NCBI GenBank assembly: GCA_039621445.1
Contig: CP154954.1
Location: 26,672,954-26,736,953 of the forward strand
Reading direction: 5' to 3'
From: Euglena gracilis
Lineage: Eukaryota
Length of the DNA: 64,000 bases
This document shows, in pieces, positions 20,481 to 59,400 of this stretch. The notes beneath the pieces were generated by a model that saw nothing but the letters and a program-made list of their open reading frames with translations, was not told the DNA's origin and did no database searches. Every line of letters begins with the position of its first letter. Position 1 is the stretch's first letter. A program made the position numbers and the translations under genes.

Positions 20481-20879
20481 ACCAGAAATCAGAAAAGGAA
20501 ATCCCATAAGGGGAAGAAAAAACACAATTCGCAAAAAAGAGTTGGGTTGTGGTTTCTGACTTCGGAGAATCCCCTGAAAACGCACCAACCACGGAGTCCC
20601 TTGAAAATGAAAAGGTGTGGTTGCACCTGCAAAAAATGAATTTGCACCTACCCTTGCAAGGCTTTGATATGCAACCAAAATTTCCTGGCAAGAAGGAATT
20701 GCATACCATAGCCAAGCATCTCACCGAATCGCCAGCCGAGGACAAGGCAGTGAATGCCATAATCCAGGCTCGCGACTCGGATGAGAAGGAGGACCCCAGG
20801 GTGGTAGCATTTCGGAATAAAATTCTTCAGGATTTTGAAGGGGAGGTGTTGGGTATGGAGGTACCCCCTGACCCTCCTG

Positions 20880-22260
20880 TTCGGGGACCTTATGGTTACG
20901 CCCAGATTCCTCTGAAGGAGGGTGCTGTACCCACAACGCAAAAAACCTTTGTGTTACACGATGAAAGATTTGAAGCTCACAACAAGGTCACCCAGGAAAG
21001 GTGGCACCGGAAATTTGTTGAGCGATTGCCCAAGGGAACAAATTCGGAATGGCTGTCCGTAACATTTGTAGTTCCGAAAAAAGGAGGCGAATGGAGGGGA
21101 GTGGTAGACATGCGGGGGCCTAACAGTCAAACTAGGCATGTGTCCTACCCATTTCCCGTAATTGAAGACCTCCTGGTAAAACAAGGTGGAAACATGATGT
21201 TTTCCATCTTGGATTTACGGCAGGCTTTCCACCAACAGCCTTTGGACCCGGAAAGCCGGCCCATCACATGTTGTAGTACCCCCCTCGGTCTTTTTCAGTG
21301 GAGGGTTAATGTGATGGGTCTAACAAACGCAAGCCAGCAGTTTTAGCAAATGATGGAAGATCGCCTCTTCCCCGTGGGAGACGTGGCTGATCCTTACATC
21401 GACGACATTTTGACTGGAACCCGAGTGCGTCCTGGTGAGGATTTACTCGCAGCACATGACATGGATTTGCGAAGAGTCCTTGAAGTTTTACGAAAAGACA
21501 GATTTGTAGCCGACAAAAGAAAATGCCGCACGATCTGGGTGGGGGGGTGAGAAAACCATCCCCTGGAAAGCTTATGGCCATTGAAAAATGGGAGCCACCC
21601 CAAACAATCACGGGTTTACGTGCTTTTCTGGGGTTCACAAATTATTACAGCTCCTATGTGAAGGATTACGCCCACATTGTCGCTTGCCTTCAAGGTAAGC
21701 TCAACGTTTCACGAGTGGACGGCAAGAAGGGTTCCAAGAAAAGGATTTCTTGGGACCATCCGACATTGAGGCATTCCAAAAAATTAAATCACTGTTGTGC
21801 AGTGAATTAATTTTGCAACACGTTAAGCCAGACAAACCATTTGTTTTAAGAGTGGATGCCAGCCAGTATGCGGTTGGTGCCACCCTTGAACAATTAGTCG
21901 GGGAGGATAGGGCTCCTACTCCTGAAGACGCACGGGCCAAGCGTACTGTGCCTGTCGCCTTCATGAGTAGGAAGCTAACGGGCAGCCAAAGAAACTGGGT
22001 ACCTAGGAAACAGGAGACTTATGCCATAATCCTAGCCTTACAAAAGTGGGAATCATGGATTGGGCTGCAGCCCATCCTGGTTCTCACGGACCACAATTCT
22101 AGATGCACCAAGTGGTCCCATTGGGAGAAGGGCTAGGTGGCATCAAATATTATCAAATTTCGATTTGTCGGTTGGGTATATCCCGGGACGGGAAAATACC
22201 ATAGCCGATTTGTTGTCAAGGTGGGCTTACCTGGCCTCCCATGCCTTGAAGGACAATTTC
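20880..22260 (+). pseudogene. pol: Gypsy reverse transcriptase + RNase H (stop and frameshifts)
   Basis: WRGVVDMRGPNSQT, FSILDLRQAFHQ, YIDD, LRAFLGFTNYY, LRVDASQYAVGATL, ETYAI, N.IADLLSR. Confidence 0.95.
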
Positions 22261-22433
22261 AAGGCATGGGTTAGCCCTTGACACCAAGGAAATGAGGGAA
22301 ATCATTCAAACAGAAAAATTGGAAGAGGCAGAATCTATGTGGCTACGGTTAGTGGCCAACCAACCACAGCCAATACATACATTCGTGGAGTCACCACACG
22401 GGGAGGTGCTACCAGGGGGTCCGGGGACACGGG

Positions 22434-24116
22434 TGTTTTCTGAGTGTCTCCTTTTACCCACTGGGGGGTCAAACTTGAAAACGTTTCCTTTCCAGCAGCA
22501 CTCACTTTCCTTCAGCACAGCATAAACCAAGACTTGAAATCGTCATCTGGCGCTCAGGCCTTCCAGGAGTCAAAGAGTTCAGGACAGTTGCAGCTGCAAA
22601 AACAGAAATTTTGTAATTAGGATTCTCGCCTCCTAATTTAATTTTGGGTTTTGAAATTTTAAACCTGGCGCCGCCCACACACCCCTCTCTGGACACTTCG
22701 TGCCCACTGCCTTCGGCAATTTTTTTGCGGCGCCAAAATTGGCCTTTTTTCTTTTGGGGGGGAGGCGGCTGAAATTTGTTGTTTTTTTAATTTTTGAACG
22801 CTGAATCAGGGATATAATACATCCGTTGCAGGGATTTAGTCCAACAATGTCCAGCAGCAAAATAGGGGGGGCACAGGGCCACCAGCCAACCCCAGAGCCC
22901 TTGGGGCACCATGGGAAAGTTTGGTCCCCCTCCCAACCTTCCCCAGGACACTCCTGGGATGAGGGGGCCAGTGGGGGGTTTCCAGGGGGAGTCCCAGGGC
23001 CTGTGGGTAGGCCCCCTTGTGGCGGTCCTCCCACCTGGGCCCTGGGCCTGGGCCTGGCCAGCACAAACTCAAAGCCAATCTTGCAGGGAGGGGGCTCAAA
23101 TTGAACACACAATCATTGCAAAGAAGCTTCACCACTTGAATCACTGAAATTTGGGCTGTCCCCTGTGCCGACCTGGAGCCTAAGGTGCACTTGTTGGCAG
23201 GACCCTCCTTTCATCTTTTGCCTCCTCATTCTCCTTTTTGCTGAACTTGAAATTTGATTAGAAACTTTTGCCATTTTGAAACATTGCCTTATCCTTCTGC
23301 AGACAAATGCCACTTGTACTGGCCATTTTGTGGGGGGGACTGTGAACCCTGCCCCAACCAACTCAAACAACGGTGTGGCACAAGGATACTCCAGCATTCT
23401 GACAACAATGTCTGGAAGATCTTCCCACCAGGGGACAGTCACCCACCTTGGGACAACCAGCACCGCATGACCATGATCCTTCTTCAGCTTGTGGATGACA
23501 TTTGCAATGAGGTTGAAGGGGGGATTTGCCCACAACAATCCAACAATGGAATGTGTCCACTTCACTGTGAAGGAGTCTTCCACAAATTGTGACCCAGGTC
23601 CCCACCAGCATTTGAATCTCTTGCTGTCTTCCAAACTGAATGCATCAATGTTGGGGGTCTTCAAACCCAATCTCTCAAAGATTTCAACAACATACTGAAA
23701 TTTCACTGCATACAGCTCAGATTTCCAGCCAAGTTTTCTGCAGCATTTATCTTCCCAAATTTCTTCATCATTGACAATCCCTGACTTGACACTTTCTGAA
23801 ATGTCCATTTCTTCTGGCCAAACTGGCTGACTTTTGTCCTCCAAGACTTGCGCAACAAATGAACTCTTTGTGTTTTCTGAGTGTCTCCTTTTACCAACTG
23901 GGGGGTCAAACTTGAAACTTTTTCCTTTCCAGCAGCACTCACTTTCCTTCAGCACAGCATAAACCAAGACTTGAAATCGTCATCGTGCGCTCAGGCCTTA
24001 CAGCAGTCAAAGAGTTCTGAACAGTTGCAGCTGCAAAAACAGAAATTTTGTAATTAGGATAGGCGCATCCTAATTCAATTTTGGGTTTTGAAATTTTAAA
24101 CCTGGCACCGCCCACA
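22434..24116 (-). mobile_element. Non-autonomous LTR element B (246-bp LTRs) carrying an N6-adenine MTase
   Basis: LTRs 22434-22679 and 23871-24116, TG..CA, 4-bp TSD CGGG, PPT AGAGAGGGG on minus; sits between Gypsy RH and IN. Confidence 0.92.
23113..23808 (-). CDS. Dam-like N6-adenine DNA methyltransferase (DIRS-MT-like), open ORF
   Basis: PNIDAFS (motif I-like), LLWANPPF (motif IV), AVLVVPRW..PWW; no stops; first ATG ~23808. Confidence 0.8.
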   Translation of the reverse strand: MDISESVKSGIVNDEEIWEDKCCRKLGWKSELYAVKFQYVVEIFERLGLKTPNIDAFSLEDSKRFKCWWGPGSQFVEDSFTVKWTHSIVGLLWANPPFNLIANVIHKLKKDHGHAVLVVPRWVTVPWWEDLPDIVVRMLEYPCATPLFELVGAGFTVPPTKWPVQVAFVCRRIRQCFKMAKVSNQISSSAKRRMRRQKMKGGSCQQVHLRLQVGTGDSPNFSDSSGEASLQ

Positions 24117-24559
24117 CGGGTTGACGGTGCACACAACCGGGGGATAGGAATTCAGAACCACTTGGAGGAACAAAACCCCAGGTTGGGTTCAACCTCCACC
24201 CCCAAGGGAGAAAAATGAAAACATGTTTCATTCTCAACTCGGGTTGACGAGTTTGGGAATGAGACAAGTCTTGTGGACGAGGTCCAAGAGCCAAGGGGGG
24301 AGCATTTTCCATTGACACGCTTTTCTATACCAGCTTCGCCAACAATTCCAACCCCTGAACCTGCTGCCGCGGCTACCACTGAGGTACCTGGGGCAGACCG
24401 AGAATCACCTGTGTTGTCTTCAGGTGGTTTGAGTGGTGAGGGGGGGGGGAGCCACATCTACAGCCGATTCCTCACCCATCTCCCCCGGATCTGTGTGGGA
24501 TTTATCGTGGAAGGAGGAATATTTAAAAAGTTCCCTCCTTGGTCACCAATTTTTCAGGT

Positions 24560-25976
24560 TACCCAGGATTCAAAGGTGCCGTGGCCTGAAAATGTAAAGG
24601 TTTTTGGGGACAAAAGGTTTTTCGAGGAGAGGCTTTGTGTGCCCAAATCTCTCCAAGAAAACCTCATTCGGGATCACCACTCATACCAAGGGCATGTGGG
24701 ATTCCCAAGGTTATGGGAATGCATGTCCCTTAGGTATGATTAGGCTGATCACTCACTCGCTCGAGAATTTGCTAAAGGAGTCATGGGCCTTTCTGGGACT
24801 TGCCAAGCGTGCCGACGGCCGGAGAGTCTTAAGGGTATAGTGGAATCTACACCCATACCCCCAGCCGTAATGTATTCGGTGGCCCTGACATGTTTAGCAT
24901 GCCTCTCGTGGAGTGGGAAGGAAATTCTTACGACTCCAGGCTTGGGTGTGTGGATCGTCTCTCCGGTTGGATAGTGGCGATCCCCCACCTAGCAATAGGA
25001 TTTACCCAAGCCAAGGCAGCCAACCAAATGCTGTTGCATGCTTGGAGACCCTTTGGCGTCCCTTCCATTATTACTTCCGATCTGGGCCCACATTTTGTCG
25101 CCGGTTGGTGGCAGTGTGTGGCAGTTGGTGGCAATGTGTGCCTTGATGGGAATTAGGAAAGCCTACTCCCAGGCCTACGATCACCAGGCGAATGGAAGGG
25201 CGGAGAGGGCTGGCCAACAAATAATGGAACGGCTTGAGAAAATTCAGGTTGAGGACAAGTTGAATTGGGTTGAAGCCCTCCCCCAAGCACTAGACCGTAT
25301 CCAGGATACGCCGGGGGGGAGAGGCCTAAGCCCATTTCAAATCTTGTTCGGTCGACACCGTTCATTGTGTGGTTTACCTTATGAACCGTTAAGGGATTGT
25401 GAAGATGCCTGATCATTTTTTTCTCGGCAAAGATAAATTGATTTGGTAGTGGCTGGCAAAATGAATAATTTGCATGCCAAGCAATGTGCTCGGGCCAACT
25501 GTGGGAGTTGGGAGCCATTGGAGGTGGGGAATCTGGTGTTGTACCTCAGACCCCCCGATGGTGGCACAAAACTGGATTCCCGTTGGTTGGGCCCTTGCAA
25601 GGTTACCGCAAGGGAGGGAATTCATTCCTACCTAATTGAGGTCAAACCGGGCCATATTATGAAGGCCCATCGGAAGGCTTTGAAGGTATATGTGGAGGAC
25701 CCCACATCCGATAAGCCTATCCCCCTATTTTTCCATCGGCGGACGGTACCTGAGGCGGAAGGTGCCCCAGATACCTGGTTAGTGGATAAAATCCTAAACC
25801 ACAAGTTCGTTAATGGAAAAATGTTTTTCTTAACGAAGTGGCAAGGTCTTGAGGAGGCGAATTGGGAACCGGTGGAACATTTTTCCCAGGAGTATTATAG
25901 TGATGTAATAGATTATTGTCTGGCAAAAGGGTTGCCGTTGGATGTCTCTAAGGATTTAACGGCAACGGCAACCTGA
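24560..25976 (+). pseudogene. pol: Gypsy integrase with C-terminal chromodomain
   Basis: HH..GH/CQAC zinc motif, VDRLSG, IITSDLGPHF, QANGRAER, SPFQILFG, WLGP, chromodomain VDKILNHK..FFLTKWQG..NWEP. Confidence 0.92.
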
Positions 25977-37060: not shown

Positions 37061-38252
37061 AAATGCCCTGGCCCCCCTAGTTTCAGTGCACAATCCGGCC
37101 TCACAAGGGCAAGTGCGGAGCCCGAGGTGACTCGTACTCAATCGGGACAACCGAACAGGGAGGAAGGGACACCGAGGGTGAAGCACAAAGACCTTGTGAG
37201 CCCGACCCCCCCACCCGTAAAAGAAAATTTGCCTTCAAAAGCCCTCGGTCAGAAAGTGGGGGCCAGGGTGGGCAGAGGGGGGACCCCCCCAGGGGCAAGA
37301 AGTTACGTCGCCAAGTCGGATCAGCATCGTCAGCCAACTTCGGCGAGGCGGAACTAAGCAGGGGCCTATCCCAACGCAGCAAACAATACAAACAACACCG
37401 CCGGCGAGCAAGGCATGGACTCACAAGGTCTTGTGCTTCGCCCACGATGTCCCTTTCTCCCTGGTCGGTTGTCCTCGAGGGAGCACGATATCTTGGCATG
37501 AAGCAACCACAAATCGGCGCCAATGGCGACACCCGCGGCTCCGCACTTTGCCCTTGAGAGGCCATGCCTTGTTCGCTGGAGAGATTTTCTTTTGTCGAAG
37601 TCCAAAAATCAGCATCAGCCAAACCAGGCGAAAAAGGCACCAAGCAGGGACTCCGAACCACGGCGCCAGAAACTCGCATTGATGCCCCCTCCCCCCTGGT
37701 TGGTTATTCCGCAAGGGCGTACGACGCCCTTTTGAATATGGGCAAAAAAACAACTGCCCAATGGAGGGAAAAGCACCGAAAATCGTAATCAAGCACCGGC
37801 GATAAGTGTCCTGTTTCCCGACGCTCCCGGCCACCTTCGCCAGCTCTGCGACTTTTGGGGCCAATCTGGCATTTTCTTCAAAATCCGAAGTACTATCCGC
37901 CCCCTTTCGATCCAGAAAGGCCAGGTCCCTCTTCCCCCCTGGCATGACGTTTTTTTCTTAAAAAAAAGTCTCTACTTGGCTGCCCTTCAGCTTCTGACTG
38001 GCCTTTGGAGGTCCACCCATTTAGCCATAGCCCCTTTGTTAGGCCGCCTTGGCTTGCCTCCATGGCCGGGGCTGTAAATTCGGGTTTCTTTCACGGCCAA
38101 ATTGAAATGTGCGGAGCGCTGCTGGAAGGCCTCCATTACTCCTCCTGATTCCATCTGAAGATGTAGGGAGGGCTTTCTGCACCCAAGTTCGAATTGCTTT
38201 GGTATTCCGTTATTGTCTTGGCATTTTGCCCACTGTTTTCCTGCGTTTGCCT

Positions 38253-41200
38253 AGGCAAACGCAGGAAAACAGTGGGCAAAATGCCAAGACAACAACGGAA
38301 TACCAAAGCAATTCGAACTTGGGTGCAGAAAGCCCTCCCTACATCTTCAGATGGAATCAGGAGGAGTAATGGAGGCCTTCCAGCAGCGCTCCGCACATTT
38401 CAATTTGGCCGTGAAAGAAACCCGAATTTACAGCCCCGGCCATGGAGGCATGCCAAGGCGGCCTAACAAAGGGGCTATGGCTAAATGGGTGGACCTCCAA
38501 AGGCCAGTCAGAAGCTGAAGGGCAGCCAAGTAGAGACTTTGTTTTATTAAAAAGAATCGTCATGACAGGGGGGAAGAGGGACCTGGCCTTTCTGGATCGA
38601 AAGGTGGCGGATAGTACTTCGGATTTTGAAGAAAATGCCAGATTGGCCCCAAAAGTCGCAGAGCTGGCGAAGGTGGCCGAGGGCGTCGGGAAACAGGACA
38701 GTTATCGCCGGTGCTTGATTACGATTTTCGGTGCTTTTCCCTCCATTGGGCAGTTGTTTTTTTGCCCATATTCAAAAGGGCGTCGTACGCCCTTGCGGAA
38801 TAATCGACCAGGGGGGAGGGGGCATCAATGCGAGTTTCCGGCGCCGTGGTTCGGAGTCCCTGCCTGGTGCCTTTTTCGCCTGGTTTGGCTGATGCTGATT
38901 TTTGGACTTGGACAAAAGAAAATGTCTCCAACGAACAAGGCATGGCCTCTCAAGGGCAAAGTGCGGAGCCGCGGGTGTCGCCATTGGCGCCGATTTGTGG
39001 TTGCTTCATGCCAAGATATTGTACTCCCTCGAGGACAACCGACCAGGGAGAAAGGGACACCGTGGGCAAAGCACAAGACCTTGTGAGTCTATGCCTTGCT
39101 CGCCGGCGGTGTTGTTTGTATTGTTTGCTGCGTTGGGATAGGTCCCTGCTTAGTGCCGCCTCGCCGGAGTTGGCTGACGATGCTGCTCCGACTTGGCGAC
39201 GTAGCTTCTTGCCCCTGGGGGGGTCCCCCCTCTGCCCACCCTGGCCCCCACTTTCTGACCGAGGGCTTTTGAAGGCAAATTTTCTTTTACGGGTGGGGGG
39301 GTCGGGCTCACAAGGTCTTTGTGCTTCACCCTCGGTGTCCCTTCCTCCCTGTTCGGTTGTCCCGATTGAGTACGAGTCACCTCGGGCTCCGCACTTTGCC
39401 CTTGTGAGGCCGGATTGTGCACTGAAACTAGGGGGGCCAGGGCATTTTCCAGGGCACCTTGGGCAACAAGTCGTTGATAATGGGCTGTAAAAGCCTCCAC
39501 CCCCTTCCACTGGCAAATTTCACAAACTCCGTAGGCCGAAAGGCCCAATTTTTTGAGTAAACCAACTCCTGCTCCTCCGGTGGAGTGTGCCCCCAACACC
39601 TGGCGGGTACCCCTTTTTTGGCCAAAAAGTCTTTTGTGATAGAAGCCACGGTGTCTGCGCTTACGGCACTGAAGGGGAGTTTTAATGAAATCAGAAGGGG
39701 GCGCCCCGTTCTGACGAATGAACGTGTGGCAGCCACATAAGACATCATTAAATTAAAGGGGCTTTTTTGTGGAAATTGGGGAATGGACACCACCCTCTCC
39801 CACTTGTGAAACTTCTGGCATTTACACTTAATTTTTGTATACGGTGCCCTATCCAGCACACTGGTGGTTCGTTTGACTTGTGCCAAGTCAAACTATCAAT
39901 ATAAACAGAGGATTTTTGAGCAACAAAATAAGTTGTGTACGCAATTTACAAATATCAGTCGGCATTGGGGCCTTGGCCAGCCCCAGGAGGAATGGGAGAG
40001 AATCTCAAAATGCCCCATACTTCTCTGGATTTTGGTTCCGAAGCCTCTTGTAAGGGGTCAACAGGGTGTAGAATCTTAGACCACCAAACCCAGGAATCAA
40101 AAGCATTGCACTATATGCATTACGGGCTTGGGCCTTTGAAAATTGGATTAATTGTTTTAAAGCGTCAGCCACTTGGTCTGTGGTGGCTTCAGGGGGGGGC
40201 ACCCCCATTTGCTCCAAAATTACCCACAGAAGTGCAAAAGACTCTGATAACGTTTTAAACTGGGGTTTCTCTCCAGGAAATAGCCAATGGTTTTAACCTG
40301 AATTTGTTTCCCCTCCAATATTTTCCTGAGCAAATCATGCAAAGAAGGGGCCACCTAGGGGTGGCATTTGTTCCCCCCTGCAATTGGTGAACATACCCTC
40401 TTAGGGGGGTGATTTTCAGAACCTGCCGGGGGGTGATTTTCGCAACCAGCCTGAACACAATGACTCAGAAAGCCACAAGCATTTGGATTGGTGCTGTGTA
40501 TCAAATACTATGATAAATTCAAGGATTTCAGTGAGAAGTTTCCGTCACAGGGATTTTGAAGTTTCCACTCATTGAGACCCAAAGGTCTTAATACACCCGT
40601 CTGCTTATGCGGTCTGCCAGGCATTCTTTTGAAGGCATCCAGTTGACTTGGAGGTTTACTTGGTGCTCTATGCACCATTTGAAAATGGTCTTAGCATTGT
40701 GTTGAAGGAGTGCTTTCTGCCCCCCTCCCTTTTGTCAGGTAACAGTAAATCCCTTGGTTGTCTATGGACAAAGAAACTGTGTCCGCAGGTTTGCTCAAAC
40801 CTTTCACAGTGCTGATTGCTGCAGTGAGCTCCTTTACATTTATTTTAAAAATGGAGTCTTTTCACCAAAATTCCTGCACTAGTTCTCCTGTGTGGATGTC
40901 CAGCCCCCCCCCCCAGGCATGGGTGCTGCTGTCTGGGTGCAACTCCTGGTTGCATTTTGGGGGAAGGGTATGCCCCCCAGGTGTCCTCCAGAATTTTTAT
41001 TTCCCTTAATTGGGCCTTGATTTCCGGAGAAATGGGGTGTTTTGAGTCCCAGGAGGCTGTGGACTTTGCCACCAAAAATTTTTCCAGGGTGTCCGTAAAA
41101 GCCCTTAAAAAGAGCAGGGCCATTAGATTGCATCTTATTTGACCCAAAATGGCAGCCAACTGCCTTTTTCACAGGCAACCTTTTTTCACAATTCTTCCCA

Positions 41201-49879: not shown

Positions 49880-52800
49880 AGACACCTCGGGCTCCGCACT
49901 TTACAATTGTGAGGCCATGCCTTGCTCGCCGGCGGTTTGTTGTGTGATTGTTCGCTGCGCTGGGTTCGGAGGTTCTGCTTAGTGCTTTTTTTCTCCGGAG
50001 TTGGCTGATTCCTAACTTGCCCTTCGACACCCAGAAGAAGGAAAAGAGTTCACGAACGAAGAAGAACCGAGAAAAGACGTCAATATTAATTCAATATCCA
50101 GAAGGACACGAACCAGACGAATAGCAATTGAGAATTCAATTATCAATTTTCAATTTTCACTTCAATGAGCAATGCAGTGGAAAAGAAATTGAAATTGCAT
50201 GGCCACGGACGTCCTGGAGCAGTTGCCGCAGAAGCAGGAGATCTTGGAGATGCGGTTGACACGCGGAAAACCGTGGCCGTTTTCCCCCCAGACCCCCACC
50301 CCAGAAATTTCCCAGCCCAAACCCCCCCCAGTGACGGCCACGGTCCTTGGACCACGGTGGCTGGCCAGAAGGCCCAGAAGGCAAAAGTCTGCCCCAGCCC
50401 TTGATGGGCAAAGTATTGGCCAGGGGGGCCCAAATTGCTCTACAATCGAACAACCACAGCCCACACACCTGGGGCATCTCCCCCAAAGGCGCACAGTCGC
50501 CTATACACAACTTGGGCAAAGGATGGGGAGATGAAAGCCATGTTGGCCAGTTTTACAAGCAAATCCCCTCAGGAAAGGGATGAAAAGGTCTGTCAAACCC
50601 CCCCAATTCACCTATCACAACAGCCCCTCTCAAAGGGAAAAGGGGGGGCCACAGCAGCCCCCCCAGATTTCCAGTGGGGTTGGAGGCCAAGAAGAAATCA
50701 AGGCGTGGAAGACCCACAGAAGGATTATGGAAAACAATTTACACACGGAGACCTTGGAGACCAGCAGGGTGGACACACAGTGGCCACCAAGAAGCTAACG
50801 GACATCATCCCCAACCAGCAGGGTGGACCCACGGTGGCCACCAAGAAGCTAAGAAAGCCGCTGGAGAAATCTCCCGAGGGACCCACAGAGGCCCTCTGCC
50901 AAAAAAAGGGGGAAAAGGGGACCCACAGTGGCCTCTTTAATGACCCAGCCTCAGTAGGACAAGGGACCCACAGTGGCTCTTTTGGGGGGAGGGGCAGGAA
51001 ACCCTCCTACATTTATTTCTCAGTTCCCGATCAATCAATCAAGGGGAGAACCCACAGAGGCCCCCCTATGGTATGTCAACCAACCACATCAACATGCAGA
51101 AGACAAGATAGGCCAAACAGGGGCATTAGGCTCTATGGTATGTCTCCCAACAACAAGACCATCCAGAGAGAGTGCATGCACATCCCCCTAGAAAAAAATT
51201 CTTTTCTAAGGGCCCAAGCCCTAGGGGACCTAGGGGTGCAATGTCCAACACCCCCAACCCAGCCCCCCCAGAATCATCTTATCCAGAAACTAAAATCAAT
51301 GGGGGAAAGAGGGGGAGACACCCCCCTCCATCAAAGGTTACAAAAAAGCCTAAAATGTCCAACACCCCCAGCCCAGCCCCCCCAAAATCATCTGATCCAA
51401 GAAATAAATTCCATGGAGGAAAAATGGGGAGACACCCCCCTCCATCAAAGGCTGCAACAAAGCCTGAAATGGTGGACAAAAAATTCCCCCCCAACAGCAT
51501 GTCAACTAATCAGGGATGGCATTCAACTCCCTTGGGAAAACCCACCAAAATTGTCCACCAATCCAAAACCCAGGGCAAATTTGAACCTGCAGAAAGCAGA
51601 AAAAATACTGCTGGATTACGAAAAATCTGGATCTCTAAAGAGGGTGAGGGATTCAACCACCCAGCACCTAATCCCCTGGTTTCTGATTTCGAAACCAGAA
51701 GGGGAGCAGATAAAATGGAGACTAATAAGCGATTGCAGGAAACAAATCAACGATTCCAAGTGAAACCTTTCAAGCTGGATCACATCCAGCACATTTTTCC
51801 AGTGTTAGAAAAAGGCCACTGGGCAGCAAAAATAGACCTAAAGGATGCTGACTTCCACATCAAAGTGAGCCAGGCCCTAAGACTTTGTAAGGCAGCAGGC
51901 GGGGGGGGGGCAGACCTGGGATTTCCAGGCAGGCTGCTTGGCCTAAATGTAATGCCCCAAATTTTTATGTCAGTAATGTAGACAATCGAAAAGCTGTGGA
52001 GGAAAAAGGGCATCCAGGTATTTATTTACCTGGACAACATTTTACTGGTGGAACAAACACAAAACACCTTACAAAATCACCTGAACACAGTGGTCAGGGA
52101 TTTAATGAAATCAGGATTCAAAATTAATGTAAAAAAGTTCCACCCTGCAGCCGACCCAAATCGTAAATCTTCTTGGATTTCAGCTAAACTTCAAAGAGGG
52201 AAAATTACAGGCCCCCCCCAGAAAATAAATACAGTAAAAAAGGCACTGGGAAAAACGGTGAAAAAAGGTTTCATGTCAAGAAGGCAACTGGCTGCCATTT
52301 TGGGCCAAATCATATGCAACCTAATGGTCTTGCCCTTTCTAAGTGCCTTTACGGAAGCCCTGGCAAAAAAAAAATTTTGGTGGAAAATTCCACAGCCCCC
52401 TGCGACTCAAAACACCCCATTTCCCAAAGAATAAAGGACCAATTAAGAGAATTAAAAAATCTGCTGGACACCTGGGGGGGCAGCCCCTTCCCCCAAAGTG
52501 CAACCAGGCAGTTGCACTCAAACAGCAGTACACATGCCTGGGGGCGTGGGCTGGACATTCGAACAGGCAAAATTGTGCAAGAATTGTGGAGGAAAAACTC
52601 CATTTTGCGCATAAATGTCAAAGAATTAAGTGCAGCAATAAGCACAGTTCAAAGCCTCAGCCAGCCAGGGGAAACTGTGTCCCTATCCGTGGACAATCAA
52701 GTAATTTACTATTACTTAACAAAAGGGGGGGGGGCATAAAGGCCCCTTTCAATTCCATGCTAAGACATTTCTTAAATTGTGCATGGAGCACAACATAAAC

Positions 52801-53882: not shown

Positions 53883-55407
53883 GTCTCGGACTCCCACGAC
53901 ACAGGAAGGGGGAGGAAGGGACCAGGAGGGCGAAGCACAAGAAGATGGTGAGGTCCTGCTTTCCTTGCCGGCTGTTCTGTTCTGGTGTGTTTGTGCGTGC
54001 GCGGAGGGTGCTTCTGACTGCGCCTTTGTTGCCGGAGTTGGCGATGATGAGGCCTCCTCCGACACCTTGGCGAAGCTGAACCGTCGTGGCCCCGCCTCCC
54101 CCCCCCTCTCCCATGGTTGCTTGGTCGGGGGTCCACTTTCTGGTTGGGATGTTTTTCTTTTTCTGCTGATTTTTTGGGTGGGGGGGGGTTGGGCTCACCA
54201 TCTTCTTGTGCTTCGCCCTCCTGGTCCCTTCATCCCCCTTCCTGTGTCTCTCTCGTGGGAGTCCGAGACCCTTCGGGCTCCGCACTGCGAGATCGTGAGG
54301 TACTGTGCACCCCCCTTTGGGCCATAGTTTTTTGAATTTTTGATACGACCCCGAGTCGCAAATAATGAGCTTGGAAGGCCCCAAAATTTTTCCACTGACC
54401 CAATTGCTGGACTTCTTCCACTTGTAAACCAGCATTTTTCCACCATAAAACCCCAGCCCCTCTGGTGCTGTGAGGTTTCCTGTGGGTGGTGTCCACCCCC
54501 CCTCTTGCAGAATTTATTTGGTCAGGGAATTCACTCTTTCGGATGTCAAAGGTCGTTTACCATCCAAGGACCACAAAAAATTATTTTTGTGCCCAACCAT
54601 GTGGGTTGTCCTTTCCACATATGCCTGCAATAAATGCCAGGGGGCTTATGAGGGGTGTGTGTGGCAAATTCAAAACTTCCTCCCATCTTGGTAATTCCCA
54701 CCCTTTCCTTTGCAATAAAATGAAATTTTTTTCTCCCACGAAACTGATTTTTCCCTGTGTCCTGGCTAGATCAACCCCCCTATGGAGGGCCAAAAGCCTC
54801 CAACAGATGATGAGTCTGTTTCTGAGCTCTTTCAAAGATAGGTCTGAGAGGGGACTTGAATTCCTGATGATGTTTCCTAAGAAGTCAGTGGGGTCCCAAA
54901 AGTGGCCATACTTGCAGACATTGGAAGTCCATTTCCTTTTCAAAGGAGCCAAAAGAGGATAAAACCTCAATGAACCAACCCCTGGGAGTAATAAAGCTGT
55001 TGCATATGCATTTCGTGCAGTGTTGAGGCTGTGAACAGCAAGATCAAGGATGGCCTCAGCCATCCTGTGGACTGTGCAGTCCTGCAGGGGCACCCCTTTG
55101 TGCAACAATTGGCCCACAAATGTCCTGAAGGCTGAGTCATATCTTTTGACATTTGCCAGATTTTTTATGTAAGTGTCGACACTGGACATCGAAACTTTCT
55201 GGGATTGTAATATTTGCCTGACACAATCAAGCAGGCCAAATTACACCTTGGGGGGGGGCATCTCCTCCCCCCAGCAATTGGTGAACAGACCCCACTGGGG
55301 GTGGTACCAGTAAAACTTTGCTGCCTGGCTGCCTGATTGACATCAATTGGCGCCACCAGGATGTCGAAGCCCAGTGGGGTACGATCAACAGACAAGTCAG
55401 GTCTGGG

Positions 55408-56429
55408 TGTGTGCGGCAGACGGGAGATCCTACGGAGGTTGGTAGCCGGCGCGTAGTACCAAGCCGAGCATCGCTCGAGTAGCTTATTCGGTAAGGTGCT
55501 GGGCTCACACGCGGGAGGTCGTGGGTTCGAGACCCAGGTCCCGCCGTGTGAGTCCTGGTCGATCCCGTACGGGCAGAGGGCATACCACGGGGATCGACCG
55601 GGGCGCGTAACTGCGCCCAAGGACGAGACACTGGTTGGCCGGACCTTGGGTGTAGTTCCCCGCCTAAGGGCGTGCAACGGCAAGCAGTATGAGCTGCCCC
55701 GTGGCCGTCCAACGGCGGGTGGTGACAACCAACGTAAACATGGTAGCAGAGGAACCCGTCTAATGCCACACGAACCGGGAAATCACAGCCTGACCCCACG
55801 GCGCCCGGAAGGCGGAAGCGGACGCGCCGAGTCTAGGGCGACTGAAACTCCTACACCGTTCCAAAGTCTTAAGCCGATGCAAAGGAGGACGCTCCAAGGC
55901 GGCAGAGCCCGTGGAAGTCGACAACACGTAAACTGCCGGCAATAGCAAACCCGAGCTGCAGGGGTCGGCAGCCTGGTGACGCAGTACTCGTGAGAAGCAC
56001 TCAGCCAACTAGGGCCGTGTGAGGCATAACCCGAGCTGCAGGGGCCACGGCCATAGTGACGCAGTGGGCTAGCGTAGTCAGGCTCTTGGGAGGGAGTGTG
56101 TGCGGCAGACGGGAGATCCTACGGAGGTTGGTAGCCGGCGCGTAGTACCAAGCCTAGTATCGCTCGAGTAGCTTATTCGGTAAGGTGCTGGGCTCACACG
56201 CGGGAGGTCGTGGGTTCGAGACCCAGGTCCTGCCGTGTGAGCCCTGGTCGATCAAGTACGGGCAGAGGGCATACCGCGGGGATCGACCGGCACGCGTAAC
56301 TGCGCCCAAGGACGAGACACTGGTTGGCCGGACCTTGGGTGTAGTTCCCTGCCTAAGGGCGTGCCACGGCAAGCAGTATGAGCTGCCCCGTGGCCGTCCA
56401 ACGGCGTGTGGTGACAACCAACGTAAACA
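55408..56429 (+). mobile_element. TRIM (1022 bp; 333-bp LTRs) with tRNA-derived cassette in LTRs
   Basis: LTRs 55408-55740 and 56097-56429 TG..CA, 5-bp TSD CTGGG, PBS TGGTAGCAGAGG, PPT GGGAGGGAG. Confidence 0.95.
55473..55545 (+). pseudogene. tRNA-derived sequence (anticodon loop CT-CAC-AC, Val-like) in 5' LTR; second copy 56162-56234
   Basis: A-box TAGCTTATTCGG, B-box GGTTCGAGACC, canonical spacing; D and T stems pair, acceptor and anticodon stems degenerate. Confidence 0.7.
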
Positions 56430-59400
56430 CTGGGTTTACCATTAATCTCTGAACACACTGAGGAATGATGCTCCAGGGGGGGGTTTGCATAAACTGGGGG
56501 GAGGTCCCTCAAGTCTGCCCTTAAGGCATCCACCAGCAAAGCCTCTTGGTCGGGGTATCAACAAACAAACTTGGGGATTTTTTTGTTTCTGGGTGTGCAA
56601 AACATGTCCACCTCTGGGGTAATGTCCTGCCTGAAAAAGTTCAGAATCAGGTGAAAGATGTTTAGTTTTAGGGTATAATCCCCTGGGTCCTTTTGCTCCC
56701 TGGTCAGGGAGTCTGCCAATTGCTCCTTTGTGGGAACCCAAACCACTTGCAAATTGATTTGCTTTTCTTGGCAATGATATAGCAGGGGTTTAAATATAGA
56801 ATTGATGTAGGGCTTTTTGCCTCCCCACTTTGTTAAATAGCTCACAGCCAACTGGCTGTCGACATGAAGCATAATTGTTTGCTTTGGCTTGGCTAGTGCT
56901 TTTGTAGTTTCCACTGCAGCCTGCAACTCTTTTTGGTTGATATGAAGGACATGCAGGTCCCTCCAAAAATCCTGCACCTTTTGGCCTGAATCTTTGTCCA
57001 GCCCCCCCCCCATTGCCAGGTGCTGCTGTCTGAGAAGAGTTCCTGAGAGGCCTGTGATTGAAATGCCCTGCCAACCCCTGGCTGTAAAAATGTTTTTTAA
57101 CTCCACAATCTGATCTTTGAACCCCTGGGGAATGGTAAGGGCGTGGTCCCAACCCCACCTGGTGTGCGAATCCACCATTTTGCAAAGTTGATCTGTCAGA
57201 ATTCTGAGAAATGGCATGGAGACTAAATAGCTTCTGACCTGCCCCACAATAGATCTGAGTTTTCTGCAGCTCATTTTTTGTGCAGTGAGCACCTTGCCTA
57301 GCTCCTTTCTTAAAATTTTTTAATTTTTCCTGTGAAATTTCCAGTTGGCCTTTTTTCAAATTGATCCACTGGCCCAAATGCTTTATTCCCTGTGTGGGTT
57401 CCAAACAGGACTTGGGAAGGTTTAATCTGAAACCTGCCAGTAAAAGATCCTGTTTTATTTCTGCCAAATGCTGGGCTGCTGTCTTTTTGCTGGGTGCTAA
57501 CAGCAAAATGTCGTCGAGGTAGATGAAAACTACCTTTCCGTCCTTTCTCCATTTCCTTTCCCAGACTCTCATGAGAGCCATAAATTTTTGTGGCAGGCTG
57601 CTTATACCAAAGCATGCAGCTTGAAACTGCCAAGTTTCCCCCCCCCCACCAGCATGCAAACATGTTTTTCCAGGCTGCTGTGCAGTTTTAAGTGGAAATA
57701 AGCATCTTTCAGATCTATTTTTCCACAGAACCAACCTTTCTTTAAGGATGGGAAGCTTCCCATGTGTTCCAGCCTGAACTTCTGGGGGGTGAAATGTAGA
57801 TTTAACTGTCGACAATCTGAAATTAGTCTTTCCTTGGTTTGTTCCCCTTCTTTTTTGGAAATGATGAAATAAGGGACAAAATGTTTTGCCTCCTCTGGGG
57901 GAATCTGCCTGGTTGCCCCTGCACATTCGTCCTTGGGGGGGAGGCCCAAGATTGGCTGCAACAGGGTCCCCCCAGAAGATAATCAGCCCAGACACCCCAG
58001 CTGTGTATGTACCCCCCCACTGCAGACACGGACCTTCCCCCATCATTGAAAATCAGGGGGAAAGCCTGTCCTTGAAAGGCCCTATGGCAGGGCCAGCTGC
58101 AGCCCCAGTGATGGGGCAACCAAGGGGAAGGACCCCTGTGATGGGGCCTGTGGGATCCCCAGACACATTACACCCAGGGGTGCCCCCTTACAAGGCCCTG
58201 CAGGCCAGCCTGCCCCATTGGGTCAAGGCAGGTGCCTGAAGAGAGGTGTGCTTATGTTCCCCCTGGGTGGGTGGTGGCGATGTGAAAACAGGGGGTAGTC
58301 TTCCAGACCTGTCTGCCCATTTCTGTCCCTCTGGGCTGTGGGCTGCTGGTGTCTTTGTCTCCTCGACTTCATGGCCACCAATGTCCAGGGTCCATGGCCG
58401 TCGTCGAAATGATGGAATTGAAATTTTTCCGGGAAATTGGAGGGTGGGGGGGTTGCGACGGCCACGGACTGGTGCTCCGCTCCTGCTCCATCATCGTCCA
58501 GCGCCTGCTGCGCCTGCCCTTTTCTCCACTTCAGGTTTCTTCCTTGAAACTCCTTGCAAAGCTACTTGAAAGCTTGGTGCCATGTTGGTTGCTCCGGCTC
58601 CTGCTGGAACTCCATCTTCTCCAGCTTCTGCTGCCTTCGCCGGCGTTCTTTGTTGCTTTGCTGGGCCGCTGGACACCAGGTATGTGGCATCTTTCATCGA
58701 AGTCAAAATTTCCTTCCTCCGCTGATCGTTGAATTGCTCTTCCCCCTCTGTGTTGATTGGTCGCTGTGGTGAACGTTTTTGACCTCGTTGAGTTGAAATT
58801 CTGCCTTCTTGCGGTCGAAGGGCAGAATTAGGAGTCAGCCAACTCCGGCAACAAAAGCAGTAGGAAGCACCCCCCGCGCACACACAAACACACCGAACAG
58901 AACAGCCGGAAAGGAAAGCAGGACCTCACCATCCCGAAGTGCGGAGCCCGAATGGTCCACAAGGGAAAAGTGCGGAGTCCGCGGTGTCGGCAAGGGCTCG
59001 CCCCTGGACGCTGGTTGGCTTCCACACGTGCGTGGGTCCTCGGTGCATGTTAAAAAAAAAGGTTCCATAATAAACGGATGTAAGAAGGTGGAACCTTGGG
59101 GGTGAAGAGAACCTGCGCTTCCTCGGACCAGGCTGAATAAAATGACAATTCCCCAACAATTTCTACCTGGTTTGAACGCAAAGACAGAGACTCCCCGACT
59201 GCACCAAAGAGCACTGCATCACATCGACGAGGCTCAAATCCAGTCTGGCAAGCTTATGCAATGGGCCACAAGGCAGGTGCGTGCTGAAGCTTAGGTGGCG
59301 GATCTCGCAATATGCGGCTTTTGCTTTGTGTGCACATTTGCGCAAATCAACGCTTTTTTCCCTTCAAAATGACTACACCTGGATCCTGAAGTCAAATATG

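Follow-up and report, generated by a model that had tools for sequence, protein, structure and literature searches.

A non-coding LTR element of Euglena gracilis with a tRNA-like, predicted polymerase III promoter module in each LTR, probably a Helenus-type TRIM

Positions 55408-56429 of the window (the whole 64,000-nucleotide stretch of Euglena gracilis DNA that was analysed) are occupied by a non-coding LTR element of 1022 bp, with a tRNA-like segment in each of its LTRs. Considered as a whole, the element is probably best explained as a Helenus-type TRIM with a tRNA-derived, predicted polymerase III promoter module. The parts of this explanation should be read with different confidence: we are largely confident of the structural assignment of the element, while its use of polymerase III is a tentative proposal drawn from the sequence, to which we give somewhat less than even weight. 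The initial annotation had described a TRIM-type element with a tRNA-like A/B-box module in sense orientation in each LTR, and this structure is borne out. It had also proposed a tRNA analogue of the plant element Cassandra; the design does match, but it is not new, having been published as Helenus (Kojima 2024, PMC10886601). The element is a further family of the Helenus kind and is new by exact-word comparison, while the principle of a tRNA counterpart to Cassandra was already published in 2024.

Helenus comprises TRIMs with tRNA-derived sequence in their LTRs (Kojima 2024, Biology 13:119, PMC10886601) and, together with Cassandra (5S rRNA, plants) and Ajax (5S rRNA, nemerteans), makes up TRIMp3 (PMC10886601). 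Helenus elements are 311-1263 bp long and have been found in Pucciniales, a few Agaricomycetes, six animal phyla and Selaginella; their conserved parts are box A (TRGCY, YGG) and box B (GGTTC), and in most families a functional tRNA could not be encoded (PMC10886601). Target site duplications (TSDs) are of 5 bp in the fungi and the plant and of 4 bp in animals, and the primer-binding sites (PBSs) of the fungal families are of types common with Copia, including the 3' end of initiator tRNA-Met, while those of the animal families are common with Gypsy (PMC10886601). The likely origin of Helenus is a tRNA-derived SINE inserted into an LTR, and such elements arose several times (PMC10886601); sequence kinship to a published family is thus not required for assignment to the class. 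Among TRIMp3, polymerase III transcripts have been validated for Cassandra only, with Helenus being unvalidated (PMC10886601). Table S1 of the same paper has 235 rows, corresponding to 200-odd Helenus families (PMC10886601). In the full-text literature, only citations of Kojima 2024 were found and no experimental follow-up, with a meeting report and a sugar-beet paper mentioning it in passing only in the portions at hand.

The features of the element and its immediate surroundings are as follows, in window coordinates, with the basis of each given in brackets.

54584-58052, minus strand: host retroelement interrupted by the TRIM (Pfam; reverse transcriptase at 56793-58052, weak RNase H match at 56561-57319, ORF at 54584-55240)
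55403-55407, plus strand: left TSD copy, CTGGG (sequence; empty-site contigs)
55408-55740, plus strand: 5' LTR, 333 bp, TG..CA (12 mismatches against the 3' LTR; RNA fold z -5.0)
55473-55545, plus strand: tRNA-like segment of the 5' LTR, with D and T arms kept and acceptor and anticodon stems decayed (RF00005, 15.8 bits)
55480-55491, plus strand: A-box-like motif TAGCTTATTCGG, fitting TRGCY...YGG as TAGCT...CGG (motif definition: Kojima 2024, section 3.5, PMC10886601)
55501-55555, plus strand: 55-nt hairpin that includes the T arm, with anticodon-loop bases paired to sequence 3' of the tRNA-like part (minimum-energy fold)
55524-55534, plus strand: B box GGTTCGAGACC, perfect (pattern scan; 3' LTR copy at 56213-56223)
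55741-55753, plus strand: PBS TGGTAGCAGAGGA (sequence; assignment to initiator tRNA-Met presumed)
55741-56096, plus strand: internal region, 356 bp, no Pfam coding match
56088-56096, plus strand: polypurine tract (PPT) GGGAGGGAG (sequence)
56097-56429, plus strand: 3' LTR, 333 bp (LTR comparison)
56162-56234, plus strand: tRNA-like segment of the 3' LTR, with A box at 56169-56180 and B box at 56213-56223 (RF00005, 16.9 bits)
56430-56434, plus strand: right TSD copy, CTGGG (sequence; empty-site contigs)
56578-56584, plus strand: first downstream T run, T7 (putative terminator)

The architecture is that of an LTR retroelement and is clearly beyond chance. The two LTRs (55408-55740 and 56097-56429), of 333 bp each, have TG..CA termini and differ at 12 positions, corresponding to 96.4% identity, and the 5-bp duplication CTGGG lies on either side of the element. 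The PBS and PPT directly adjoin the LTRs at their canonical places, the former after the 5' LTR and the latter before the 3' LTR. The PBS, over its first 13 bases, is presumed to pair with the 3' end of an initiator tRNA-Met of the animal, vertebrate type. LTRs, PBS, PPT and TSD are all present where the initial annotation had placed them. No coding capacity was recognised in the 356-bp core by means of Pfam and stop-to-stop ORFs: no stop-to-stop ORF over the element gave a Pfam match, and a protein search with a 162-residue stop-to-stop frame over LTR and core returned 122 candidates, none at E <= 0.001. Within the core, two 38-nt direct repeats (55948-55985 and 56028-56065), 79-85% alike, lie 80 nt apart. 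The 64-kb window contains no second copy of the element.

In composition, the element stands out from its surroundings, with a G+C content of 63% and a CpG observed/expected ratio of 0.97, as compared with 49% and 0.38, respectively. Such a high CpG ratio in a CpG-depleted genome, together with LTRs that are 96.4% alike, marks the insertion as fairly young. Neither TATA[AT]A nor AATAAA/ATTAAA occurs on the plus strand of the element. There is likewise no run of at least four T on the plus strand inside the element, as had been claimed, and indeed no run of at least four A or T at all; it should be noted, however, that 58% of shuffled versions, at the same 63% G+C, are likewise free of TTTT, such that the missing T4 is not significant.

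The insertion is confirmed independently by contigs from four public runs, which were placed on positions 55200-56700 (1501 bases). Such contigs cannot reveal RNA starts, ends or strand. Contigs from three of the runs (14 from X1, one from X18 and one from X20) join position 55402 to 56430, skipping 1027 bases, i.e. the 1022 bp of the element plus 5 bp; this empty-site joint confirms both the insertion and the 5-bp duplication. The element is a member of a multi-copy family with a high copy number. The DNA run X1 placed 8599 contigs on the 1501-base stretch, with a summed word depth of ~1-7e5 over the element and ~1-1.6e6 on the flanks, whereas single listed contigs had depths of 68-247; the summed depth being far above that of single contigs, the family comprises many diverged copies. 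At position 55750, inside the PBS, G replaces A in roughly half of the family depth. In the X1 bin covering the T arm (55506-55556), word depth reaches 7.1e5, some 1.5-2 times that of the neighbours, and one X20 contig departs from the element at 55536 into unrelated sequence. These two observations are crude hints, and not decisive ones, of a module common to other repeats and hence of a SINE origin. Among the 40 of 100 differences that were listed, only that at 56231 falls within the 73 nt of the tRNA-like part, which is suggestive at most.

For runs X15 and X18, the uncovered parts of the 5' LTR are uninformative, because contigs were assigned to the 3' LTR. The leaf-litter metatranscriptome X20 contains a 661-nt contig (depth 9.4; 55407-56094) in the order core-LTR-core, which nearly equals the full 689-nt unit of LTR plus core; the X20 empty-site contig of the host repeat has a depth of 8.2. 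The core-LTR-core order could reflect tandem copies, circles or assembly collapse of both LTRs, and tandem arrays have been reported for LTR-11_DR and Cassandra. As DNA carry-over may be involved, this contig was not counted as evidence for transcription. Exact-pattern scans of metagenome contigs with an LTR-end/PBS anchor and with a T-arm anchor yielded 0 loci each, and scans of viral contigs and of genome contigs for family copies likewise yielded 0 loci.

The tRNA-like segment has a length of 73 nt in each LTR and runs in sense orientation from LTR position 66, i.e. with 65 nt preceding it, followed by a further 195 nt of LTR; the module thus lies in the first half of the LTR. Position, CAC loop, A box and B box were all located as the initial annotation had claimed. 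The start of the A box is separated from that of the B box by 44 nt, a spacing as in tRNA genes, and the position of the anticodon loop reads CUCACAC, a 7-nt loop with CAC at the anticodon. In both LTRs, RF00005, the tRNA model of Rfam, matches over its full length (model positions 1-71) at corresponding positions. The earlier description of the segment as tRNA-shaped holds for the D and T arms, which pair well, but not for the acceptor and anticodon stems, with 6 of the 21 cloverleaf pairs being non-canonical. The covariance-model check proposed with that description gave a mixed outcome: RF00005 does score both copies (15.8 and 16.9 bits), but well under the Rfam gathering score of 29 bits.

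How unusual such scores are should be considered when referring to the tRNA likeness. The RF00005 E-value was 0.58 for 141 bases and 4227 families, from which we calculated ~0.03-0.06 chance tRNA-model hits per 64-kb window and, for the stretch itself, a per-family E-value of ~1e-4. In the 64 kb, the only B-box matches are the pair in the LTRs, which count as one event by descent, as against 0.45 expected; the B box taken alone is within chance. Of the 12 differences between the LTRs, one falls inside the tRNA-like part, versus 2.6 expected, which is not significant. ARAGORN called no tRNA in the window at default settings; for the LTRs, thresholds set to 100-85% of the default likewise yielded no call, and a setting of 80% produced one call per LTR, the pair being mutually inconsistent. 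The cloverleaf has an energy of -4.6 kcal/mol, as against -33.2 kcal/mol for the minimum-energy fold. Overall, the tRNA likeness is marginal on sequence grounds. A functional tRNA gene is ruled out by the sub-threshold covariance scores, the negative ARAGORN result, the broken pairs and the difference in folding energy, and the segment is best read as at most a putative promoter relic with its boxes intact. In annotation, the element should be entered as a repeat, and neither as a tRNA gene nor as a microRNA.

The preferred fold of the tRNA-like segment, alone as well as in a larger context, is the 55-nt hairpin at 55501-55555. The minimum-energy fold of 55465-55575 has -55.5 kcal/mol (z -3.99), with 0 of 200 shuffles folding equally well, and the RNA of the entire LTR (55408-55740) has -176.6 kcal/mol (z -5.0 versus shuffles). 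Two differences between the LTRs fall in the hairpin stem (55542 C/T and 55553 T/C) and, by eye, both keep the pairing. The LTR RNA contains several more long, near-perfect hairpins beyond that of the T arm. On the tRNA-like bases, Rfam models of microRNA precursors also give matches (mir-662, 19.4 bits; mir-182, 18.2 bits), as compared with thresholds of 70-94 bits. Given the fold preference of -33.2 versus -4.6 kcal/mol, the conserved object could, as far as folding models go, be the hairpin instead of the boxes.

These data can be read in other ways that need to be weighed. The element might be an ordinary polymerase II TRIM, with the tRNA-like piece being a passenger, a relic left in the ancestral LTR by an inserted SINE or tRNA retro-copy and with no role in transcription. 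The decayed cloverleaf and sub-threshold RF00005 score agree with this reading, as do the 195 nt of LTR beyond the module and the structured LTR RNA (z -5.0), which are like ordinary R/U5 regions, and the raised T-arm depth and the X20 contig leaving at 55536 fit a module common to other repeats. Against a mere passenger speaks that decay has affected the stems but spared exactly the two promoter boxes, that the plus strand has neither a TATA box nor a canonical poly(A) signal, and that unrelated Helenus lineages repeat the intact-box pattern (PMC10886601), which argues that the boxes are selected. We regard a mere passenger as unlikely, but as deserving serious weight. The tRNA likeness might instead be a product of chance in a G+C-rich, hairpin-rich LTR, of which the true feature would be the 55-nt hairpin together with the other LTR stems. 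In its favour, mir-662 and mir-182 score equally or better than RF00005 on the same bases, ARAGORN is negative, a single B box per window does not exceed chance expectation, and the hairpin is stable (z -3.99) with both stem differences preserving its pairing. The probability of such a coincidence is nonetheless small in our view: the same kind of module occurs in the 200-odd Helenus families of the 235 rows of Table S1 (PMC10886601), the tRNA model aligns over its full length with the D and T arms, the two boxes and the 7-nt loop in register, and this joint pattern is already unusual at the per-family E-value of ~1e-4.

Two further readings give the hairpin a function. The module might be a small-RNA unit, in which polymerase III would make a short transcript of tRNA-like part plus hairpin that is processed to small RNAs and does not serve as genomic RNA. 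It should be noted that some viruses have tRNA-linked microRNA precursors. A stable hairpin overlapping the T arm and weak matches to several microRNA-precursor models are what such a unit would display, but these matches are far under their thresholds and no T run follows the hairpin to terminate a short transcript, which leaves this reading very improbable. Alternatively, the element could represent an undescribed type of Helenus, combining a Copia-like helper that is primed by the initiator tRNA and makes 5-bp duplications, a terminator-free polymerase III genomic RNA of ~1.1 kb, and a T arm rebuilt as a selected 55-nt hairpin that would have a role, for example, in processing or packaging or as the precursor of small RNAs; the chances of this full combination are slim.

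For the preferred reading of a Helenus-type TRIM with a predicted polymerase III promoter module, the following course of events is proposed. A tRNA or the head of a tRNA-derived SINE was probably acquired once, by insertion into an ancestral LTR, and such a module would then have spread into both LTRs through replication. With the cloverleaf decayed, no tRNA would be produced, whereas the A and B boxes are intact and keep the spacing of tRNA genes. The module would most likely serve as an internal polymerase III promoter, with a predicted start at ~55460-55472, just upstream of 55473. As the element contains no T run, polymerase III would read on to a T run in the flank; starting from the 5' LTR, it would transcribe the core and the whole 3' LTR and could stop at the flanking T7 (56578-56584). 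An RNA of ~1.1 kb is long for polymerase III. Such an RNA would be a possible template for normal LTR-type reverse transcription, as it would have the LTR sequence twice, on either side of the core, such that strand transfer could go as usual. For copying, the element would depend on an autonomous LTR element that provides reverse transcriptase and integrase, shares the primer (most likely initiator tRNA-Met) and makes 5-bp duplications; to judge from the fungal Helenus families, such a helper may be Copia-like. From the anatomy of the element and established LTR-retroelement biology it follows that the PBS primes the first strand and the PPT the plus strand, and that the helper integrase inserts the product with a 5-bp duplication.

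TRIMs with polymerase III promoters blur the boundary between SINEs and LTR elements and inflate tRNA-gene predictions. A high-copy, fairly young family without an internal T run would, moreover, be a convenient system for testing polymerase III as a source of genomic RNA for LTR retroelements.

The retroelement that the TRIM interrupts has a very high copy number, lies on the opposite strand, and is identified by Pfam matches to RVT_1 (9.7e-09) and, weakly, to RNase_H (0.0024). In X1, the word depth on its flanks is ~1e6, roughly threefold that of the TRIM. By eye, the ORF at 54584-55240 looks like the start of a tyrosine recombinase, and Pfam on this ORF did not confirm a recombinase; given a tyrosine recombinase, the host retroelement would be DIRS/Ngaro-like. 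Six relatives, either unnamed or misnamed, were found for its reverse transcriptase, with the nearest Atlas clusters being a mixture of Chordata, Euglenozoa and Cnidaria. Over the 266 ORFs of the window, Pfam gave only retroelement domains and low-complexity matches. These include a degraded Gypsy/chromovirus-type element at 20510-25973 on the plus strand (RVT_1, RT_RNaseH_2 at 7e-24 and a weak chromodomain; frames broken) and a reverse transcriptase fragment at 51982-52431 on the plus strand (RVT_1, 1.2e-06). The latter is preceded by long ORFs at 50405-51978 on the plus strand, with a 452-residue open frame without a Pfam match, and fragment and upstream frame may together be a further retroelement. 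At 38183-38324, the window contains a near-perfect palindrome of ~142 nt, the ~70-nt arms of which meet at CCTAGG; the mir-3910 model gives 62.8 bits on either strand, as against a threshold of 95, and the palindrome probably represents a repeat of foldback or MITE-like type rather than a microRNA.

When compared with known systems, the element shares with Helenus the two LTRs, the PBS and PPT, the absence of coding capacity and a length (1022 bp) inside the published range, as well as a sense tRNA-like module per LTR with box A of the type TRGCY...YGG and box B containing GGTTC, which is not a functional tRNA. Like Helenus, it belongs to a multi-copy family, and its 5-bp TSD is that of the fungal and Selaginella families. 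As criteria for Helenus, we considered a TRIM architecture of ~0.3-1.3 kb, a boxed tRNA-like part in each LTR and a TSD of 4-6 bp, all of which were found in the element. At the level of words, the part of the Helenus consensus file (supplement of Kojima 2024) that was available contains no exact 10-16-nt word of the parts of the element that were compared by exact-word look-up, namely the start of the LTR, the regions of A box and anticodon, the flank of the B box and the LTR-end/PBS junction. In the same part of the file, a 15-nt word of the T arm recurs in two unrelated families; the internal portion of Helenus-1_AmAr (Amylostereum) begins with the same 9 nt as the PBS. At 333 bp, the LTR of the element surpasses both the Helenus LTR given as second-longest (321 bp) and the one that is 2 bp longer still, at 323 bp (PMC10886601). 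The fungal, Copia-linked families resemble the element in TSD length and primer type but, in the consensus sequences available, differ from it in their A+T-rich composition, and several of their LTRs have TTTT shortly after the module, whereas the element has no T run there.

The chordate Helenus families resemble the element in other respects. The element has CAC at the position of the anticodon loop, and the fish modules were aligned with tRNA-Val-CAC (Figure 2c legend, PMC10886601); two cyprinid consensus LTRs, among those available, are G+C-rich and without T runs, as is the element. However, chordate LTR-11_DR, LTR1_LCh and Helenus-1_AcRu are of 429-552 bp with a 4-bp TSD, as compared with 1022 bp and 5 bp here, and their PBSs correspond to tRNA-His, Leu or Lys, unlike the PBS of the element.

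Outside Helenus, identity with Cassandra and with retrozymes was rejected, as the Rfam hits with E up to 10 included no 5S rRNA match over 55000-56900 and no hammerhead family. A tRNA-derived SINE, which would be free of LTRs and end in a LINE-type or A-rich 3' tail, was likewise rejected as an identity, as LTRs, PBS and PPT are present and runs of at least four A or T are absent. Cassandra, like the element, carries an internal promoter of polymerase III type, taken from a small RNA gene, in both LTRs of a TRIM, the difference being a 5S module in Cassandra and a tRNA-like module in the element. SINE2 elements share with it a decayed tRNA head, A and B boxes and the lack of a terminator of their own, and are the likely donors of the module, as Kojima proposes (PMC10886601); they are, however, copied by LINEs and are without LTRs, PBS and PPT, whereas the element has the full LTR-type apparatus together with a 5-bp TSD.
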